From IMG/VR virus record IMGVR_UViG_2531839239_000027: 8,256 nucleotides of DNA, one strand, 5' to 3'. Origin of the DNA: a virus. Taxonomy: Duplodnaviria > Heunggongvirae > Uroviricota > Caudoviricetes. The first letter of the stretch is position 1. Every line of letters starts with the position of its first letter. Positions 1,739-7,170 of this stretch are shown here, piece by piece. The notes below the pieces were generated by a model. It searched no databases. It saw only the letters and a list, made by a program, of their open reading frames with translations, and was not told the origin of the DNA. Position numbers and translations under genes: made by a program.

Positions 1739-1945
1739 ATGGAAGCAATCAAAAAAGTCATCTTTCGCCAGGAAGTAAAAAAACTTATCCATATTAAGGC
1801 AGACAGCACGCTGCAAAGCATGATCAACGCCGGAGAATTCCCGCAGGGTTTTCGTGTCGGTTTGCGCCGTCGCGGATGGTATGAGGAAGACGTAATCGCA
1901 TGGATGAAAGAACGCGAACAAGAAGCGCGCGGAACGACCGCTTAA
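1739..1945 (+). CDS. alpA: AlpA-family phage regulatory protein (excisionase/activator-like DNA-binding protein)
   Basis: 68-aa ORF; motif ...SMINAGEFPQGFRVGLRRRGWYEEDVIAWMKERE matches the AlpA-family pattern (FP.G.r.G.r..gW.e.dv..W). GAGG 10 nt upstream of the ATG. Position just after int is typical of P4-like and PICI elements. Confidence 0.85.
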   Translation: MEAIKKVIFRQEVKKLIHIKADSTLQSMINAGEFPQGFRVGLRRRGWYEEDVIAWMKEREQEARGTTA

Positions 1946-1970
1946 CATATATAGGGCAAATGATGAACAT

Positions 1971-1998
1971 AAAAAAAGCGGCCCCGAAATGGAGCCAC
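1971..1998 (-). terminator. Rho-independent terminator for minus-strand transcription
   Basis: Read on the minus strand: GUGGCUCC-AUUUC-GGGGCCGC (8-bp stem including two G-U pairs, 5-nt loop) followed by U7 (plus-strand A-run 1971-1977). Would stop transcripts from the RHH gene before they run antisense into alpA. Confidence 0.55.
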
Positions 1999-2066
1999 CT
2001 TTCTGAACAATTAACCCGCTGCGCCGTATGTGTCAACAATCATAAGCCTGGGCATGATAACCGCGA

Positions 2067-2270
2067 TCAGGCTGGTGGGCAATTATCTTGCTTGTTGGGG
2101 CCGTATTGTGCTGCCATTTTCATCCGTTCAGAACGTGAATATTTTTTTAGAAACTCATCAAGGACAAAAGCGCATGGTGCGAATCTTTCTGATTCATGCT
2201 CGAGCGCCATATTTTCGTGCTCTCTGTTCGTTTTTTGCGATGGTGTATTGGTTGATTCTTTATTGGTCAT
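2067..2270 (-). CDS. Hypothetical small protein (67 aa; alternative internal ATG at 2210 gives 47 aa); doubtful
   Basis: Only minus-strand ORF between the RHH gene stop (2328) and the minus-strand terminator (1971-1998), so it lies inside that transcript. Weak Shine-Dalgarno, lower-GC region, no recognisable motifs. Could be non-coding. Confidence 0.25.
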   Translation of the reverse strand: MTNKESTNTPSQKTNREHENMALEHESERFAPCAFVLDEFLKKYSRSERMKMAAQYGPNKQDNCPPA

Positions 2271-2327
2271 TGTGTGTACCTGTAAAGCAATGCGCCGTAG
2301 TACCTCACACCACGGCGCTGATAGTGA

Positions 2328-2633
2328 TTATTCTGATTCTTTGGCCTTGCGGCGCTGGAGTTCTTCACGTGCGACAGTGACGAGCTGCCCGATCTCCTCG
2401 GCGGCTTTGATTCCGAGTTTTTCCACCTGCGCCAGTGCATTGAGCGAAGAAATCAGGAGGTTTTCTCCGCTTCCTTCTGCCTGGCGGCGGGCGATTTCAC
2501 CGCGCATGGCGGTTACTATGAATCCGGCGTTGCTTTCACCGTCCAGTTTTACGGATTCCATGCCTTCAATAACATCATGCGGGATCCGAGCTGTCAGTGA
2601 TTGTGATTTTGCGTTTTTTGAACCTGTAGCCAT
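2328..2633 (-). CDS. Ribbon-helix-helix (Arc/CopG/MetJ-like) DNA-binding protein with C-terminal helical extension; putative repressor
   Basis: ORF-track frame 2328..2648 begins at TTG; the ATG at 2633-2631 with GAGAGG Shine-Dalgarno is the likelier start (101 aa). N-terminus KSQSLTARIPHDVIEGMESVKLDGESNAGFIVTAMRGEIARR has the beta-strand/helix/helix layout of RHH regulators. Divergent from the Icd-like-to-rep operon across an operator-rich region. Confidence 0.6.
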   Translation of the reverse strand: MATGSKNAKSQSLTARIPHDVIEGMESVKLDGESNAGFIVTAMRGEIARRQAEGSGENLLISSLNALAQVEKLGIKAAEEIGQLVTVAREELQRRKAKESE

Positions 2634-2654
2634 CTGTAATCCTCTCAATGAAAG

Positions 2655-2749
2655 TGTAAGACAATATACACATAAAAAGTCTTACATAAAAGCATTGACA
2701 TGTAAGCCACCTATAAATAAAGTTACTTACACCTTGTTAATGCAAGGTG
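2655..2749. promoter_or_regulatory. Divergent promoter/operator region: two TGTAAG...CTTACA palindromes, a sigma70-like promoter and a leader inverted repeat
   Basis: IR1 TGTAAGAC-N16-GTCTTACA (2655-2686). -35 TTGACA (2695-2700), 17-bp spacer, -10 TAAAGT (2718-2723), pointing rightward. IR2 TGTAAG-N19-CTTACA (2701-2731) overlaps the spacer and -10. IR3 CACCTTG-N6-CAAGGTG (2730-2749) sits at the predicted start site. A TATATT hexamer on the minus strand within IR1 could be the -10 for the RHH gene. Confidence 0.55.
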
Positions 2750-2829
2750 CAGAAACGACGAAACCCCGCACTGTAGGAGCAGTAACGGGGCTTCTAACCA
2801 CCAACGATAACGAGAGTATCGAGGTAGCT

Positions 2830-3030
2830 ATGAGAAATCATACCACACACCCGCAAGGGCGGGACTCGCACAACCTGAATAAATACATTTGGCGTTTTAT
2901 CGCCCTGAGCACTGCACAACCGCGCGTGATTACCATTGAGGCCACCAGCGAACAGGAAGCACGCCTGCAATCCCCGGCTGGCTGCGTGATGGTATTCGCT
3001 GCCCGTATTCGTCAGGGGGTAGGCTTATGA
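2830..3030 (+). CDS. Small protein resembling host cell-division inhibitor Icd-like proteins of P1/P4-type prophages
   Basis: 66 codons, the C-terminal part of the spurious long ORF 1900..3030. GAGG at 2821-2824, 5 nt before the ATG. Motif YIWRFIALS...TSEQEARLQ...VMVFAARIRQG matches my recollection of the Icd-like pattern (rF.f.a....A..E.aR...lAR.fvL.FAGR); from memory, not searched. Stop overlaps the next start (ATGA at 3027-3030). Confidence 0.45.
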   Translation: MRNHTTHPQGRDSHNLNKYIWRFIALSTAQPRVITIEATSEQEARLQSPAGCVMVFAARIRQGVGL

Positions 3031-3689
3031 GCCAGGAAATCACACTACAACAGGCAGCAGAACGCGCCCACCAAATCGAAGTTATTTGCGCACTGGCAGA
3101 GGATTACCCAAGCATGATGACCGACAGAGAATCAGGGGCAATCATCAGCTTACTTAAACGCCTTAGCGGTGAGGTCTGCGTATTCCTGATCGATGAACAG
3201 GAAAGAAGAACGCTTATTTCTAACGAAAAAAATGCGGAGGGGTACATGTGCAATAAAACCACACCGGACGCAGCCGCCGCGCTCACTACGCTGATGCACG
3301 CACTTATTGATATTGAATGCACGGCAGAGCTTGCGCAGGGAGAAGAACAGAAAGACCGGACACAGTTCGCCCTGGAATGTATCCGATACATCGCAACGCG
3401 GTCGCTGAATGACGCTAAAAATATTCTTGTTGCTGATTGTGAAAATGGGGGGGTTATGCGTGATGATCGTTTTAATTCCCTGAAACAAGAATTTTCCGGC
3501 GTTCCTGATGATGCGGCTGATGCGCTTTCGTCAATGCCAGAACTTATTAGAGCGGCTTTTTTCTTACTTTCCACGAGAGAATATAAATCAACGGGACTTG
3601 ATGTACTGAATATCGCCGCCGATTATGCGGAATATGTGGCAGAGGCGCGTTACAGAAGAAAATTTCCTGAGGATGTAAGCCATGCGTGA
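3027..3689 (+). CDS. Hypothetical protein (220 aa, acidic, predicted helical); function unknown
   Basis: Start overlaps the Icd-like stop; 8-nt overlap with the next ORF (ATGCGTGA at 3682-3689). G-rich Shine-Dalgarno-like stretch upstream. No catalytic or nucleotide-binding motif recognised. Confidence 0.6.
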   Translation: MSQEITLQQAAERAHQIEVICALAEDYPSMMTDRESGAIISLLKRLSGEVCVFLIDEQERRTLISNEKNAEGYMCNKTTPDAAAALTTLMHALIDIECTAELAQGEEQKDRTQFALECIRYIATRSLNDAKNILVADCENGGVMRDDRFNSLKQEFSGVPDDAADALSSMPELIRAAFFLLSTREYKSTGLDVLNIAADYAEYVAEARYRRKFPEDVSHA

Positions 3690-3920: not shown

Positions 3921-4220
3921 ATGAAACTTAAATATTCTGGCTTAACTGCCAGTGGCAACACTCACCCTAAATTTACGCGCGGTGATATTTACCGCGACCA
4001 GTACGGCGGCACGGTAATGATTAAGGGCGTGGCGGGACGGTGCGTAACTTACCGCCGTGAAGGTTACGAATATGATTGCGTGATGCCTGTTTATCAGTTC
4101 CGGCGTGATTTTTCTCTGGTACAGACCGCGCCGCATAACGTGCCCACCAGCAACGCCAGGGCACGGGCAAACATCCAGAAGCTGAAAACCATGATTAACG
4201 GATTCAGGGGCAAGAAATGA
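3921..4220 (+). CDS. Hypothetical protein (99 aa, basic, Gly/Tyr/Arg-rich)
   Basis: GGAG at 3906-3909; stop overlaps the rep start (ATGA at 4217-4220). No recognisable motif. Confidence 0.5.
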   Translation: MKLKYSGLTASGNTHPKFTRGDIYRDQYGGTVMIKGVAGRCVTYRREGYEYDCVMPVYQFRRDFSLVQTAPHNVPTSNARARANIQKLKTMINGFRGKK

Positions 4221-5617
4221 AAAGCGCACCGAACTTAAAAAAACAGCCTTACGACAAGATGACCGAAGTCATCATTTTTGCGGGTAGTGATGCGTGGGCA
4301 CATGCGAAACAGTGGCAGGAACAGGACGGGCGACTGGCTGGCGATAATGTGCCTCCCGTTGTGCTGGCTGATGATCAACTGGATGAACTGGCAGACCTGA
4401 GAATCATCGACGAGGGGCGCTATTGTGTCCGGCTGTACAAGGCAGGCCACATCAGGCCATCAAATATTAATGCCATTGCGCACAAGCTGGCGGCGGCGGG
4501 TGTAACTGATGCGAATTATTACCCCGAAGGGATGCACAGCCAGAAGCGGGAGAACTGGCGCGAATATCTGGAACGGGAGCGGGGGAAAAAGCCAGGGGAA
4601 GAAAAACACCACCAGCGAAAAACCACGCTACCAATGAGCGTGGGATCTGCCGGATACGACACACAACTTGATTACGTGGTTAAGGGGATTATTCCGGCGG
4701 TATCGCTGTGCAGCATATACGGGGCGAGCGGTTCATATAAATCGTTCCTTGCGGGTTCGTGGGCGTGTCACGTTTCCACGGGCCGCCAGTGGGGAGGCCG
4801 CAGGGTGGCGCATGGCGCTGTTCTCTATGTGGTTGGTGAAGGCGGTATCGGCGTTCCGCGTCGTGTAAAAGCCTGGGAGGTTGTGCACGGTGAGCAGGTG
4901 AAAAATCTGTATCTGGTAAACCGTCCCATCTTTCCGGCTGCCCCGCTTGATGTTGAGGAAATGGTTATCGCTGCCCGTCAGGTGGAACGGGAAACGGGTA
5001 AACCGGTTCGAATGATTATTCTGGATACGCTGGCGCGCTGCTTTGGCGGCAATGATGAAAATGATTCCCGTGATATGGGGGCGTTTATCCGTGGGTGTGA
5101 CGAACTGAAACGGCGCACAGGGGCAACGGTGCTGGTGGTTCACCATTCCGGCAAGGATGAAACAAAGGGGGCGCGTGGTTCCAGTGCATTTCGTGCATCA
5201 CTGGACGCCGAATACCGGATACGCAGGGAGGACGCAGGCAGCGAAGCGCTGGTTATCTCATGTACCAAAATGAAGGACGCGGAGGAACTCAAAGAAGCAG
5301 CATATGACTTACGCGTGGTGGAGCTTTTTACCGACGCTGACGGGGAGTTAATCACGTCGCTGGTGGTGGTGGATAAGCCGCGCCCTCCCGTTGAACTGGA
5401 GCGCATCGAGGAGGCAGGGAACAAGACGGAGAATCACGCCGCGCTATGGCAGTGCATCAGAACACGAACAGCACACGGGGAGGCGTGCACTATCGCCCTT
5501 CTCCGCGACGATATGAAAAAGCTGGGGTATGAGATGAAGCACTTCCGGCGCTGGCTGTACAAGCTGGAAAATGATGGCGTAATCGTTATTGACGGTGATG
5601 ACGTGCGCCCGCTGTAA
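4217..5617 (+). CDS. rep: Replication protein: RepA/DnaB-like RecA-fold ATPase (AAA_25-type helicase) with an N-terminal domain of unknown function
   Basis: 466 aa. P-loop region YGASGSYKS, Walker B-like MIILDTLARCF, and LVVHHSGKDETKGARGSSAF matching the RepA-family sensor pattern (vhH.gK....RGssa). Followed immediately by an iteron array. AGGGG Shine-Dalgarno at 4204-4209. Confidence 0.8.
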   Translation: MKSAPNLKKQPYDKMTEVIIFAGSDAWAHAKQWQEQDGRLAGDNVPPVVLADDQLDELADLRIIDEGRYCVRLYKAGHIRPSNINAIAHKLAAAGVTDANYYPEGMHSQKRENWREYLERERGKKPGEEKHHQRKTTLPMSVGSAGYDTQLDYVVKGIIPAVSLCSIYGASGSYKSFLAGSWACHVSTGRQWGGRRVAHGAVLYVVGEGGIGVPRRVKAWEVVHGEQVKNLYLVNRPIFPAAPLDVEEMVIAARQVERETGKPVRMIILDTLARCFGGNDENDSRDMGAFIRGCDELKRRTGATVLVVHHSGKDETKGARGSSAFRASLDAEYRIRREDAGSEALVISCTKMKDAEELKEAAYDLRVVELFTDADGELITSLVVVDKPRPPVELERIEEAGNKTENHAALWQCIRTRTAHGEACTIALLRDDMKKLGYEMKHFRRWLYKLENDGVIVIDGDDVRPL

Positions 5618-5819
5618 AAAGTGGGGAGTAAAAGTGGGGGGAGTGGGGAATTTAACAAAATTGAAACATAATTACCCACTTTCCCACCTGTATATACCCA
5701 AAAAAGTGGGGAGTAAAAAACATATTGAAAAACATAACGTTAGAATCACAAAAAAAAGAGGTGGGGAGACGGTGGGTAATTTCAAAAAGTGGGGAGCAAA
5801 AGTGGGGAGTAGTGGGGAA
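5618..5819. repeat. Iteron array flanking an AT-rich core; putative origin of replication
   Basis: At least 9 direct copies of GTGGGGAG/GTGGGGAA/GTGGGTA at approximately 5621, 5634, 5643, 5706, 5761, 5772, 5789, 5802 and 5812. Inverted copies at 5674-5689 (ACCCACTTTCCCACC). A-rich core 5651-5756 with repeated ATTGAAA(AA)CATAA at about 5659 and 5724. Confidence 0.7.
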
Positions 5820-6554: not shown

Positions 6555-6640
6555 CAGGGGGGGAGTGTTCCGGCCGGAAAGTCGATCGCCCTGGACACCG
6601 CCCCCAGTCTCATTCATAGAAAATTTTGCTTTTCAAAAAA

Positions 6641-6660
6641 GTTACACGAAAAGTTACACC
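6641..6660 (+). repeat. Two direct GTTACAC(C) repeats 12 bp apart, immediately upstream of terS
   Basis: GTTACAC at 6641-6647 and GTTACACC at 6653-6660, each preceded by an A-run. Same motif and 12-bp spacing as the array inside terS. Confidence 0.5.
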
Positions 6661-6681
6661 CCCTCAAAACGAGGTTTTTGC

Positions 6682-7170
6682 ATGGCATTAACGACCAAAA
6701 AAAAGCGGTTTGCTGATGCGTTATCAAAGGGCACAAATCCAACGGAAGCCGCGATACATGCGGGATACAGCGAAAAGACTGCAAGGGTTAAAGGCTGGCA
6801 GCTATCCAATGATCCGGAGGTGAAAAAGTATCTTAAGGCTGTAACTTCTGATGTAACTTTTCAGGTTACAAAACCGAAAAAAGTTACAAAGAAAGTTACC
6901 GAAAAAGTTACACCGGAACGGGCATCAATTAACACCATTGAGATGATGGATAACGGCCTACCCGACCCCATCAAAGCAATGGGCAGGATACTGATTGACA
7001 ACATGGACACAGATCCAAAACTGGCTTTAGATGCCGCGTTTAAGCTGGCCCAGTTCACCCACCGCAAGATCGGCAGCATTGGGAAAAAAGAGGTTAAAAA
7101 ACTCAATGCCGCTAATGTCTCCTCAAATCGGTTCCCCATCCCTAAGCCACCAACTGGCTTAAAACACTGA
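6682..7170 (+). CDS. terS: Phage terminase small subunit (Terminase_2/P27-like N-terminal HTH)
   Basis: N-terminus MALTTKKKRFADALSKGTNPTEAAIHAGYSEKTARVKGWQLSNDPEVKKYL matches the TerS pattern (KQ.lF...Y...GNaT.AAi.AGYS.KTA...G..Ll.n..V..yi). ORF-track frame opens at 6544, but the ATG at 6682 with GAGG at 6671-6674 is the likely start. 162 aa from that start. Confidence 0.75.
   Translation: MALTTKKKRFADALSKGTNPTEAAIHAGYSEKTARVKGWQLSNDPEVKKYLKAVTSDVTFQVTKPKKVTKKVTEKVTPERASINTIEMMDNGLPDPIKAMGRILIDNMDTDPKLALDAAFKLAQFTHRKIGSIGKKEVKKLNAANVSSNRFPIPKPPTGLKH
6841..6914 (+). repeat. 12-bp-periodic array of GTTAC/GTAAC pentamers inside terS
   Basis: GTAAC at 6841 and 6853; GTTACA at 6865; GTTACA at 6883; GTTACC at 6895; GTTACACC at 6907. 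Spacings of 12 bp except one 18-bp gap. Encodes the low-complexity stretch VTSDVTFQVTKPKKVTKKVTEKVT. Confidence 0.55.

Follow-up and report, generated by a model that had tools for sequence, protein, structure and literature searches.

The 8256-bp stretch of DNA analysed here (the window; IMG/VR record IMGVR_UViG_2531839239_000027, Caudoviricetes) is a complete small island, which RefSeq genomes at 99.9% identity place directly 3′ of tRNA-Pro, between yejM and yejO. Its genes run in the order integrase, alpA, primase/RepA, replication origin and packaging, its size falls within 8–15 kb, and it occupies a dedicated attachment site; it is a classical Gram-negative phage satellite of the phage-inducible chromosomal island (PICI) type, integrated at tRNA-Pro. 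Downstream of alpA lies a divergent gene pair, with ylcI running leftward and an icd-like gene running rightward, and the stretch between them holds a strong promoter and a set of related sequence boxes. We found that these boxes change from island to island together with a short predicted β-strand of YlcI, and we consider it likely that YlcI is the box-binding repressor of the island.

The leftward gene, ylcI (2328–2633, minus strand, ATG at 2633), encodes a 101-residue product of the YlcI/YnfO family, named "YlcI/YnfO family protein" in RefSeq. A Shine–Dalgarno sequence, GAGAGG (2641–2646, minus strand), can be read 7 nt before its ATG. The rightward promoter consists of TTGACA (2695–2700), a 17-bp spacer and TAAAGT (2718–2723), matches 10 of 12 consensus positions and is the best sigma-70-like site on either strand of the window in a promoter scan. 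It has conserved A-tracts upstream, and its position is equivalent to that of the P4 promoter PLE. The first gene of the operon that it serves, icd-like (2830–3030, plus strand, 66 residues; NF033153, 69 bits), leads toward a repA-type gene. A first-pass annotation, made from the DNA letters alone, had described this near-consensus promoter, the divergent gene opposite it and two palindromes of the form TGTAAG-N-CTTACA, upstream of the −35 and across the spacer and −10, and all of these are present exactly where it had placed them.

The pattern TGTAAG-N(10–25)-CTTACA occurs exactly twice in the window, at 2655–2686 (IR1) and 2701–2731 (IR2), against an expectation of 0.01 from 200 dinucleotide shuffles, none of which reached two. 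Furthermore, four of the eight TGTAAG hexamers on both strands of the 8256 bp fall within 77 bp. IR1 has 8-bp arms (TGTAAGAC/GTCTTACA) around a 16-bp spacer, and IR2 has 6-bp arms around a 19-bp spacer. Comparison with relatives showed that the conserved units are longer than the hexamers, about 9–12 bp, and resolved four boxes. Box B1 (GTGTAAGAC, 2654–2662) is the left arm of IR1 and overlaps the region in which the leftward ylcI transcript is predicted to start; B2 (GTCTTACA, 2679–2686) is the right arm of IR1 and lies in the UP-element region, 9–16 bp upstream of the −35. Box B3 (TGTAAGCCACCT, 2701–2712) begins immediately 3′ of the −35; B4 (TACTTACACC, 2724–2733) begins immediately 3′ of the −10 and spans the point near 2730 where transcription of the icd operon is predicted to start. 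Between B1 and B2 we placed a candidate −10 of a weak leftward ylcI promoter, TATATT on the minus strand (2663–2668), and TATACT or TATATT occupies this position in most relatives. Boxes placed against the −35 and over the stretch that leads from the −10 to the transcription start form the layout of a repressor.

To compare this arrangement between islands, about 30 related loci were collected from E. coli genomes, species-representative genomes and exact-protein look-ups; the scan of species-representative genomes gave 13 loci only, and the added diversity came from the other two sources. In all related islands fetched, from E. coli, Klebsiella, Enterobacter, Edwardsiella, Pectobacterium, Serratia, Xenorhabdus, Photorhabdus, Erwinia and Pantoea, the divergent pair of ylcI (minus) and icd (plus) lies between alpA and the DUF4222-primase/RepA genes. 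We aligned 26 non-redundant intergenic regions from about 10 genera on the −35. In this alignment the promoter elements (−35, 17-bp spacer and −10) hold fixed positions, together with two A-tracts that precede the −35. Four boxes are fixed in place as well: two lie upstream, the third directly follows the −35 and the fourth directly follows the −10. Cognate repeats thus overlap the core promoter elements in all 26 loci. The sequences of the boxes vary between loci and change in concert within each locus, and in some specificity classes the boxes form direct rather than inverted repeats. Hence the layout of a repressor-controlled switch, which the first-pass annotation had proposed for the window, is a conserved unit found in every related island examined, and its boxes track the YlcI strand.

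The box sequence follows residues 10–18 of YlcI. The strand SQSLTARIP goes with the box GTGTAAGAC / TGTAAGCC in the window and in Enterobacter, Klebsiella, Edwardsiella and Pectobacterium, whereas SQLTTVRVP goes with TGTGTTTCA (L015, L019, Xenorhabdus and Photorhabdus), SQMTTIRVP with TGTATATCAC (L016 and L021) and SQMTTVRIP with TGTATTTCAC (L020). Likewise, S(K/R)QISIRIP is paired with TGTGATTCA (L013 and L035), SQxKNxR(I/V/F)P with GTGTG(T/C)AT (L005, L008, L012 and L032), SQTVAARVP with GTGTTCAACAC (L022) and SQALKARVP with GTGGGCCACAC (the prototype island EcCICFT073). Within the strand class of the window, B1 does not vary among the SQSLTARIP islands of Enterobacter, Klebsiella, Edwardsiella and Pectobacterium, and GTGTAAGACA, TGTAAGCCACCT and TACTTACACCTT are invariant across five genera while the spacers between them diverge, which amounts to a phylogenetic footprint. 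Box 3 agrees with its sister boxes at a mean of 6.59 of 8 positions within a locus, and at 5.44 of 8 between loci with different strands. For pairs of loci with identical strands, box identity is 0.82 and backbone identity 0.77; for pairs with different strands the values are 0.43 and 0.54. At least 12 other strand variants occur among the relatives, and a distinct box goes with each of them; the module thus behaves like an immunity-type determinant.

Natural recombinants separate YlcI from the other proteins that might read the boxes. The boxes could instead be sites for AlpA (the activator and excisionase), for the Icd-like protein or for a downstream product, with YlcI unrelated to them. 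Experiments on islands of this kind have demonstrated no regulator other than AlpA, which activates downstream genes (PMC6092414), and Icd-like proteins carry the label "transcriptional repressor" in PHROGs. However, L019 and L021 have an identical AlpA (WP_000737991.1), yet their YlcI proteins and their boxes differ, and AlpA is 97–99% identical in L017, L020 and L022, which have three different box types. Conversely, the pairs L015/L019, L016/L021 and L018/L023 have a common YlcI N-domain and common boxes, yet their AlpA proteins are only 25–53% identical and their downstream genes differ. The Icd proteins of the window, L015 and L020 are 92–97% identical although the boxes differ, and boxes over the core promoter fit an activator poorly. 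The PHROG label of the Icd-like proteins (phrog_6196 and phrog_1743) appears to derive from an obsolete P4 open reading frame (ORF) annotated as "cI gene product" (L037 8168–8584). We therefore regard a reader of the boxes other than YlcI as very improbable. Judged from the sequences of these recombinants, box type co-segregates with YlcI and with no other island product: the operators vary with the predicted DNA-reading residues of YlcI and not with other proteins of the element, with the caveat that ylcI and the boxes are physically linked.

One island of the helper-embedded type, L040, departs from the others in its protein. There ylcI is replaced by an unrelated and unannotated 43-residue ORF that resembles a ribbon-helix-helix (RHH) protein (MRISPELKEQFDKEAQSDGISLANWLKELGRKELLRRGIEPKG, 3212–3343, minus strand), and at 3395–3450 its own GTGACCACCT repeats flank the −10 of the same kind of promoter. 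With an unrelated protein and its own repeats in the same place, the design appears to be under selection even when the protein changes.

YlcI matches the NCBIfam model NF041551, which describes a 42-residue N-terminal domain, over residues 9–50 (71.2 bits, cut-off 30, E = 5e-20) and phrog_6522 (E = 1e-56); a Pfam search of the window proteins gave no match for it. The family is small, with 51 cluster representatives among 1.84 billion proteins in an exhaustive N-domain search, so that a deeper profile could not be built, and in the sample fetched it is confined to Enterobacterales. When the region and YlcI were compared with 50,697 phage records by BLASTN and TBLASTN, no matches were obtained, and we found no functional paper on YlcI or YnfO in the literature. 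Four large proteins (P0139, P0149, P0152 and P0158; 730–1327 residues) each contain 4–7 stretches that resemble the YlcI N-domain.

The first-pass annotation had called the product of ylcI an RHH protein. The sequence pattern of that fold is present (K9-S-Q-S-L-T-A-R-I-P18, a helix at 19–28, a turn G32-E-S34 and a helix at 35–54), but matches to known RHH profiles or folds are sub-threshold only. AlphaFold2 (AF2), together with the pattern, gives a predicted β-strand at 10–17, helices at 19–28 and 35–54 and a long C-terminal helix at 59–100, with a pLDDT of 82 for the whole protein and 88 for the N-domain by itself. Only monomers were modelled, and in these the strand region appears as coil, as expected. 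Among profiles of the RHH clan, PF07704 is reached below threshold in 22 of 30 YlcI members (best E = 1e-3), CB_ParB_C at E = 3e-4 and RHH_1 at E = 3e-3, and hhalign against Arc gave E = 0.0097 at a probability of 4%. Foldseek on the YlcI models gave no matches, and PDB profile searches returned no RHH protein. Since the pattern is present and independent confirmation of the fold is weak, we treat RHH as probable rather than proven. The long C-terminal helix is probably an oligomerisation coiled coil, and short 59-residue forms of YlcI in relatives resemble internal deletions of this helix.

ylcI is a coding gene under protein-level selection. This had to be established because the plus strand opposite it is also open through the whole region, which was earlier treated as unidirectional Bro-network genes (PMC10111431), and because the wobble positions of the ylcI frame and the antisense frame coincide, so that third-position bias cannot discriminate between them. 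On these grounds ylcI could be an accidental antisense ORF in a real plus-strand gene of the Bro/eta type, the repeats serving RNA structure or a host factor. Against this, the YlcI frame has fewer amino-acid differences than the antisense frame in 27 of 27 divergent pairs and more conservative substitutions in 26 of 27 (mean BLOSUM62 of 0.06 versus −0.80), while the plus-frame product across the ylcI stretch is Ser/Cys-rich and poorly conserved. The AF2 prediction is confident for the protein, the curated family has members outside this context (for example, ylcI of E. coli K-12), and the gene has its own Shine–Dalgarno sequence and a strand-specific terminator. We consider an accidental ylcI extremely unlikely, the least probable of the alternatives discussed here.

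That terminator lies at 1971–2003 (minus strand), where a hairpin followed by U7 marks the end of a leftward transcript of ylcI and a second gene, orf67. Its predicted fold reaches −19.9 kcal/mol on the minus strand (z = −4.4) versus −7.3 kcal/mol on the plus strand (z = −0.9); the G–U pairs and the U7 exist on the minus strand only, and the structure is weak in the rightward direction. A second stable hairpin (2292–2318, minus strand; −19.3 kcal/mol, z = −3.5) stands directly 3′ of the ylcI stop codon and is possibly an attenuator or an RNA stabiliser. Selection on the ylcI frame, the hairpin after its stop codon and the terminator after orf67 together delineate a leftward ylcI–orf67 transcription unit. 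The product of orf67 (2067–2270, minus strand) is a small conserved protein that matches phrog_21027 and has a conserved HESERFAPCAF motif. EcCICFT073 has orf67 homologues, and in L017, L022, L032 and L039 small minus-strand hypothetical ORFs (63–84 residues) are annotated at the same position.

A small gene behind a probable RHH gene raises a further explanation, that ylcI encodes an RHH antitoxin paired with orf67 and that the palindromes are only its autoregulatory operator, overlapping the rightward promoter by chance. No ORF is annotated at the orf67 position in L015, L016, L018, L019 and L021, which nevertheless keep ylcI and the boxes; a conserved co-transcribed toxin gene next to the RHH gene, as expected of a type II toxin–antitoxin system, was not found. 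Moreover, orf67 has no toxin family match in Pfam or NCBIfam and only a PHROG match of unknown function, and toxin neutralisation would need a C-terminal region that is missing from the short YlcI forms. B3 and B4, which are stronger and better conserved than the other boxes, lie on the rightward promoter and not on the leftward one. An antitoxin role for YlcI thus seems very unlikely.

YlcI might also bind the boxes in another capacity: in centromere binding of the omega/ParG type, in copy control, or in activating nothing but its own promoter. RHH proteins such as omega, ParG and type Ib ParB act on arrays of short repeats in either orientation, three members of the YlcI family have weak CB_ParB_C matches, and in some specificity classes the boxes are direct repeats. 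However, no partition ATPase is found among the window genes by Pfam, NCBIfam or RefSeq annotation, PICIs are reported to lack a plasmid state (PMC6092414), and boxes that keep one position relative to the −35 and −10 at every locus point to promoter control. We judge such a role about as improbable as that of an antitoxin, and prefer YlcI as a repressor of the rightward promoter.

The gene pair is set in a second, nested layer of organisation. The icd frame is free of stops for 945 nt upstream, back to 1885, and forms a long eta-like open frame (1900–3030, plus strand; stop-free from 1885 to 3027) whose first ATG, at 1900, precedes the alpA stop codon by 46 nt. The frame passes orf67 and ylcI in antisense, continues through the operators and the leader of the operon, and enters icd in frame. 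Across ylcI, 29 of 30 loci have no stop in this antisense frame; the other two antisense frames contain 0–9 stops, and only one case among them is without any; resampling of synonymous codons gives a probability of about 0.36 per locus that no stop occurs. The 196-nt intergenic stretch is open in only 1.2% of shuffles. In 19 of 29 loci the frame is continuous from the left of ylcI into icd.

The predicted transcript of the icd operon begins with a structured leader of about 100 nt (2730–2829, plus strand) with three hairpins, HP1 (2730–2749), HP2 (2760–2794) and HP3 (2800–2825), and the end of HP3 adjoins the Shine–Dalgarno sequence GAGG (2821–2824). Its minimum free energy is −35.9 kcal/mol (z = −4.3). 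Across 24 relatives, 87% of the cells of HP2 and HP3 are paired and 10 pairs have changed on both sides; none of 500 shuffles matched the observed values, and slid controls were 30–42% paired, so that compensatory change supports these two hairpins. This test was made on a hand-drawn structure; RNAalifold recovered only 6 pairs in the leader. No family for the leader came up in Rfam, whether the search used the window or just the leader. Possible roles are mRNA stability, translational control or a Rho-related function.

Several observations weigh against YlcI as the operator-binding repressor and against the wider scheme built on it. The backbone, too, correlates with the β-strand (Mantel r = 0.45, versus 0.57 for the boxes), and the boxes adjoin the 5′ end of ylcI and would be co-inherited with it by recombination, so that linkage accounts for part of the correlation. 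The RHH fold of YlcI is itself probable, read from a sequence pattern and weak profile matches. In the operators of Arc, Mnt and CopG, adjacent RHH dimers are spaced by 10–11 bp, unlike the boxes here, which are 21–26 bp apart. The promoter scan found no convincing sigma-70 promoter for ylcI above its threshold, and the candidate at 2663–2668 falls below it. In about a third of the loci the long open frame is broken before icd, and several of these frames end within about 20 nt of the icd start. Lastly, overexpressed AlpA alone is enough to induce EcCICFT073 (PMC6092414), so by the published data a repressor is not strictly required.

On balance, the co-variation of the boxes with the YlcI β-strand, and not with AlpA or Icd, argues that YlcI is very probably an operator-binding repressor, organised like Mnt of phage P22. 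We infer that YlcI oligomers would occupy four boxes of about 10 bp with a common half-site (B1–B4, 2654–2733), spaced about two helical turns apart. With B3 and B4 occupied, RNA polymerase would be kept out and the replication operon from icd to repA would stay silent, while B1 and B2, which bracket the weak leftward promoter, would provide autoregulation of ylcI. Recognition would be set by β-strand residues at about 11–15, within SQSLTARIP in the window.

Derepression may use the open frame. AlpA activates its own promoter in EcCICFT073 (PMC6092414), and by analogy with P4, AlpA, switched on by the helper phage and then activating itself, would drive transcripts from upstream of alpA. In the stop-free eta-like frame, again as in P4, ribosomes could follow the polymerase and prevent Rho-dependent termination. 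Such read-through transcripts would run antisense across ylcI, its promoter and the operators, into icd and the replication genes, and would thereby both bypass the repressed promoter and interfere with synthesis of the repressor. An anti-repressor acting on the conserved C-terminal helix of YlcI may be an alternative or additional route; we know of no anti-repressor partner for YlcI.

The arrangement is general among these islands, includes EcCICFT073, and is set in a nested frame like that of P4 eta/kil; both points go beyond the first-pass annotation. By its sequence, the prototype EcCICFT073 (L038 2931–13655; NC_004431.1 1377930–1388654) carries the same module of ylcI, boxes and promoter: a short YlcI (L038 5474–5653, minus strand), GTGGGCCACAC boxes that flank a TTGACG/TATAGT promoter, and a 428-residue eta-like frame (L038 4767–6053) whose start has a weak Bro-N match. 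The locus tags C_RS30120 and C_RS30125 look like later additions to its annotation. In the literature on PICIs we found no mention of this short YlcI, of the GTGGGCCACAC boxes or of the eta-like frame, and no description of the module was found. A global repressor in Gram-negative PICIs has been called "unclear", with transcription unidirectional and AlpA activation as the control point (PMC6092414), and a later survey stated that "all non-hypothetical genes are unidirectional" (PMC10111431). The "putative repressor" of EcCIMP1 was considered as a counterpart and rejected, being an unrelated PerC-like protein.

We tentatively put forward a broader scheme, possible but doubtful as a whole, in which YlcI-type RHH proteins are the missing master repressors of Gram-negative PICIs, EcCICFT073 included, and exist in many immunity types. 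With ylcI placed antisense in an open eta-like frame, AlpA-driven and translation-protected read-through would bypass the promoter and silence the repressor by convergent transcription, a two-strand switch. If true, this would supply a missing layer in how Gram-negative PICIs stay silent and exclude or tolerate one another, and would give a role to the uncharacterised YlcI/YnfO family. The more than 12 natural pairs of β-strand and operator would form a data set for an RHH recognition code and a source of orthogonal repressor parts, and an antisense gene inside a frame kept open for translation would be a rare case of functional two-strand overlap. The reading is directly testable in a model element, as EcCICFT073 and reporters for it exist.

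The rest of the island has the expected backbone, from int to the packaging genes, which is also present in EcCICFT073. A tyrosine integrase gene (1–1242) is followed by a small ORF (1320–1571) and by alpA (1739–1945, plus strand), whose product is a regulator of the AlpA/HTH_17 type with weak matches to Pfam PF05930 and PF12728, annotated in RefSeq as "AlpA family phage regulatory protein". AlpA has been described in EcCICFT073 as an activator that activates itself (PMC6092414). Between the small ORF and alpA, at 1583–1680, the window has a terminator-like hairpin with a T-run, then overlapping inverted repeats, AAAAACGGTGTATACCGTTTAAAAACGGTG, which may be an AlpA-responsive promoter region. 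Beyond the leftward genes orf67 (2067–2270) and ylcI (2328–2633), the rightward operon continues from icd-like (2830–3030) through several small ORFs and DUF4222 to the RepA/AAA_25 replication protein (4217–5617). Directly 3′ of this repA-type gene, six copies of AGTGGGGA (in units like AAAGTGGGGAGT) flank an AT-rich stretch at 5620–5818, and these iterons are expected to form an iteron-type replication origin of the island. terS and then a capsid-like gene follow. Around the start of terS and inside it, AAAGTTAC occurs six times at 6638–6911, in two clusters phased at 12 bp plus one inverted copy, where 0.2 copies are expected in the whole window; it is a candidate TerS recognition (pac-like) site. 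A seventh copy, at 2719–2726, overlaps the −10/B4 region, probably by coincidence.

Among known systems, the closest functional analogue is Mnt and its operator at Pant in P22. Mnt is a small RHH repressor with a C-terminal helical oligomerisation domain, and its gene is divergent from a strong promoter (Pant) that its operator overlaps; the P22 immI region thus has two promoters back to back, with autoregulation. The domain layout of YlcI is alike by AF2, but its sequence similarity to Mnt is not significant (hhalign E = 0.12). Furthermore, Mnt uses one 17-bp operator with adjacent half-sites, whereas the islands have four boxes 21–26 bp apart, and the operon under control encodes an antirepressor in P22, a phage, and replication functions from icd to repA here, in a satellite.

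The E. coli K-12 proteins YlcI (prophage DLP12) and YnfO (Qin) share the NF041551 N-terminal domain with the window YlcI. K-12 ylcI adjoins cos and nohD in a lambdoid prophage; it lacks both an icd partner and boxes arranged in a comparable way, and hence the K-12 genes say nothing about the mechanism. In the Staphylococcus aureus pathogenicity islands and other Gram-positive PICIs, the gene of the repressor Stl (Rpr) is divergent, lies between the integrase side and the replication operon, and controls the rightward operon from the intergenic region (PMC6092414); ylcI occupies the same position. Stl, however, is a larger helix-turn-helix protein that is derepressed by helper-phage proteins, whereas YlcI is a protein of 59–101 residues of probable RHH type and coexists with the activator AlpA.

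The closest architectural relative is the left operon of P4 (PLL-vis-eta/kil-PLE). P4 eta (8168–8812) starts 48 nt before the vis stop codon, contains the internal promoter PLE and ends in the 65-residue Kil; in the same way, the window ORF (1900–3030) opens 46 nt ahead of the alpA stop codon, encloses a strong promoter and closes with the 66-residue Icd-like protein, and so has the nested-gene organisation of eta/kil. Both operons lead to a primase or replication gene. The Icd-like protein corresponds to Kil by position and, weakly, by sequence: it is 28% identical to the C-terminus of P4 Eta, which is not significant (BLASTP E = 0.29), and BLAST searches of the phage records found no ylcI homologue in P4. 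Transcripts that come from the upstream promoter of P4 escape termination when eta is translated on them, and they thereby become insensitive to immunity (PMC10111431). The immunity factor of P4 is an RNA (CI, with seqA and seqC), whereas the window has the gene of a putative protein repressor antisense in its eta-like frame. RNA immunity of the P4/P1 type was rejected for the window, where Rfam gave no C4 or isrK match even at E values up to 10; it is present in relatives. Two of these, L032 (2280–2465) and L039 (3710–3898), carry C4 antisense RNA and isrK above the gathering score, downstream of the promoter predicted to be under YlcI control, and with YlcI and C4/isrK in the same islands, protein and RNA immunity can coexist.

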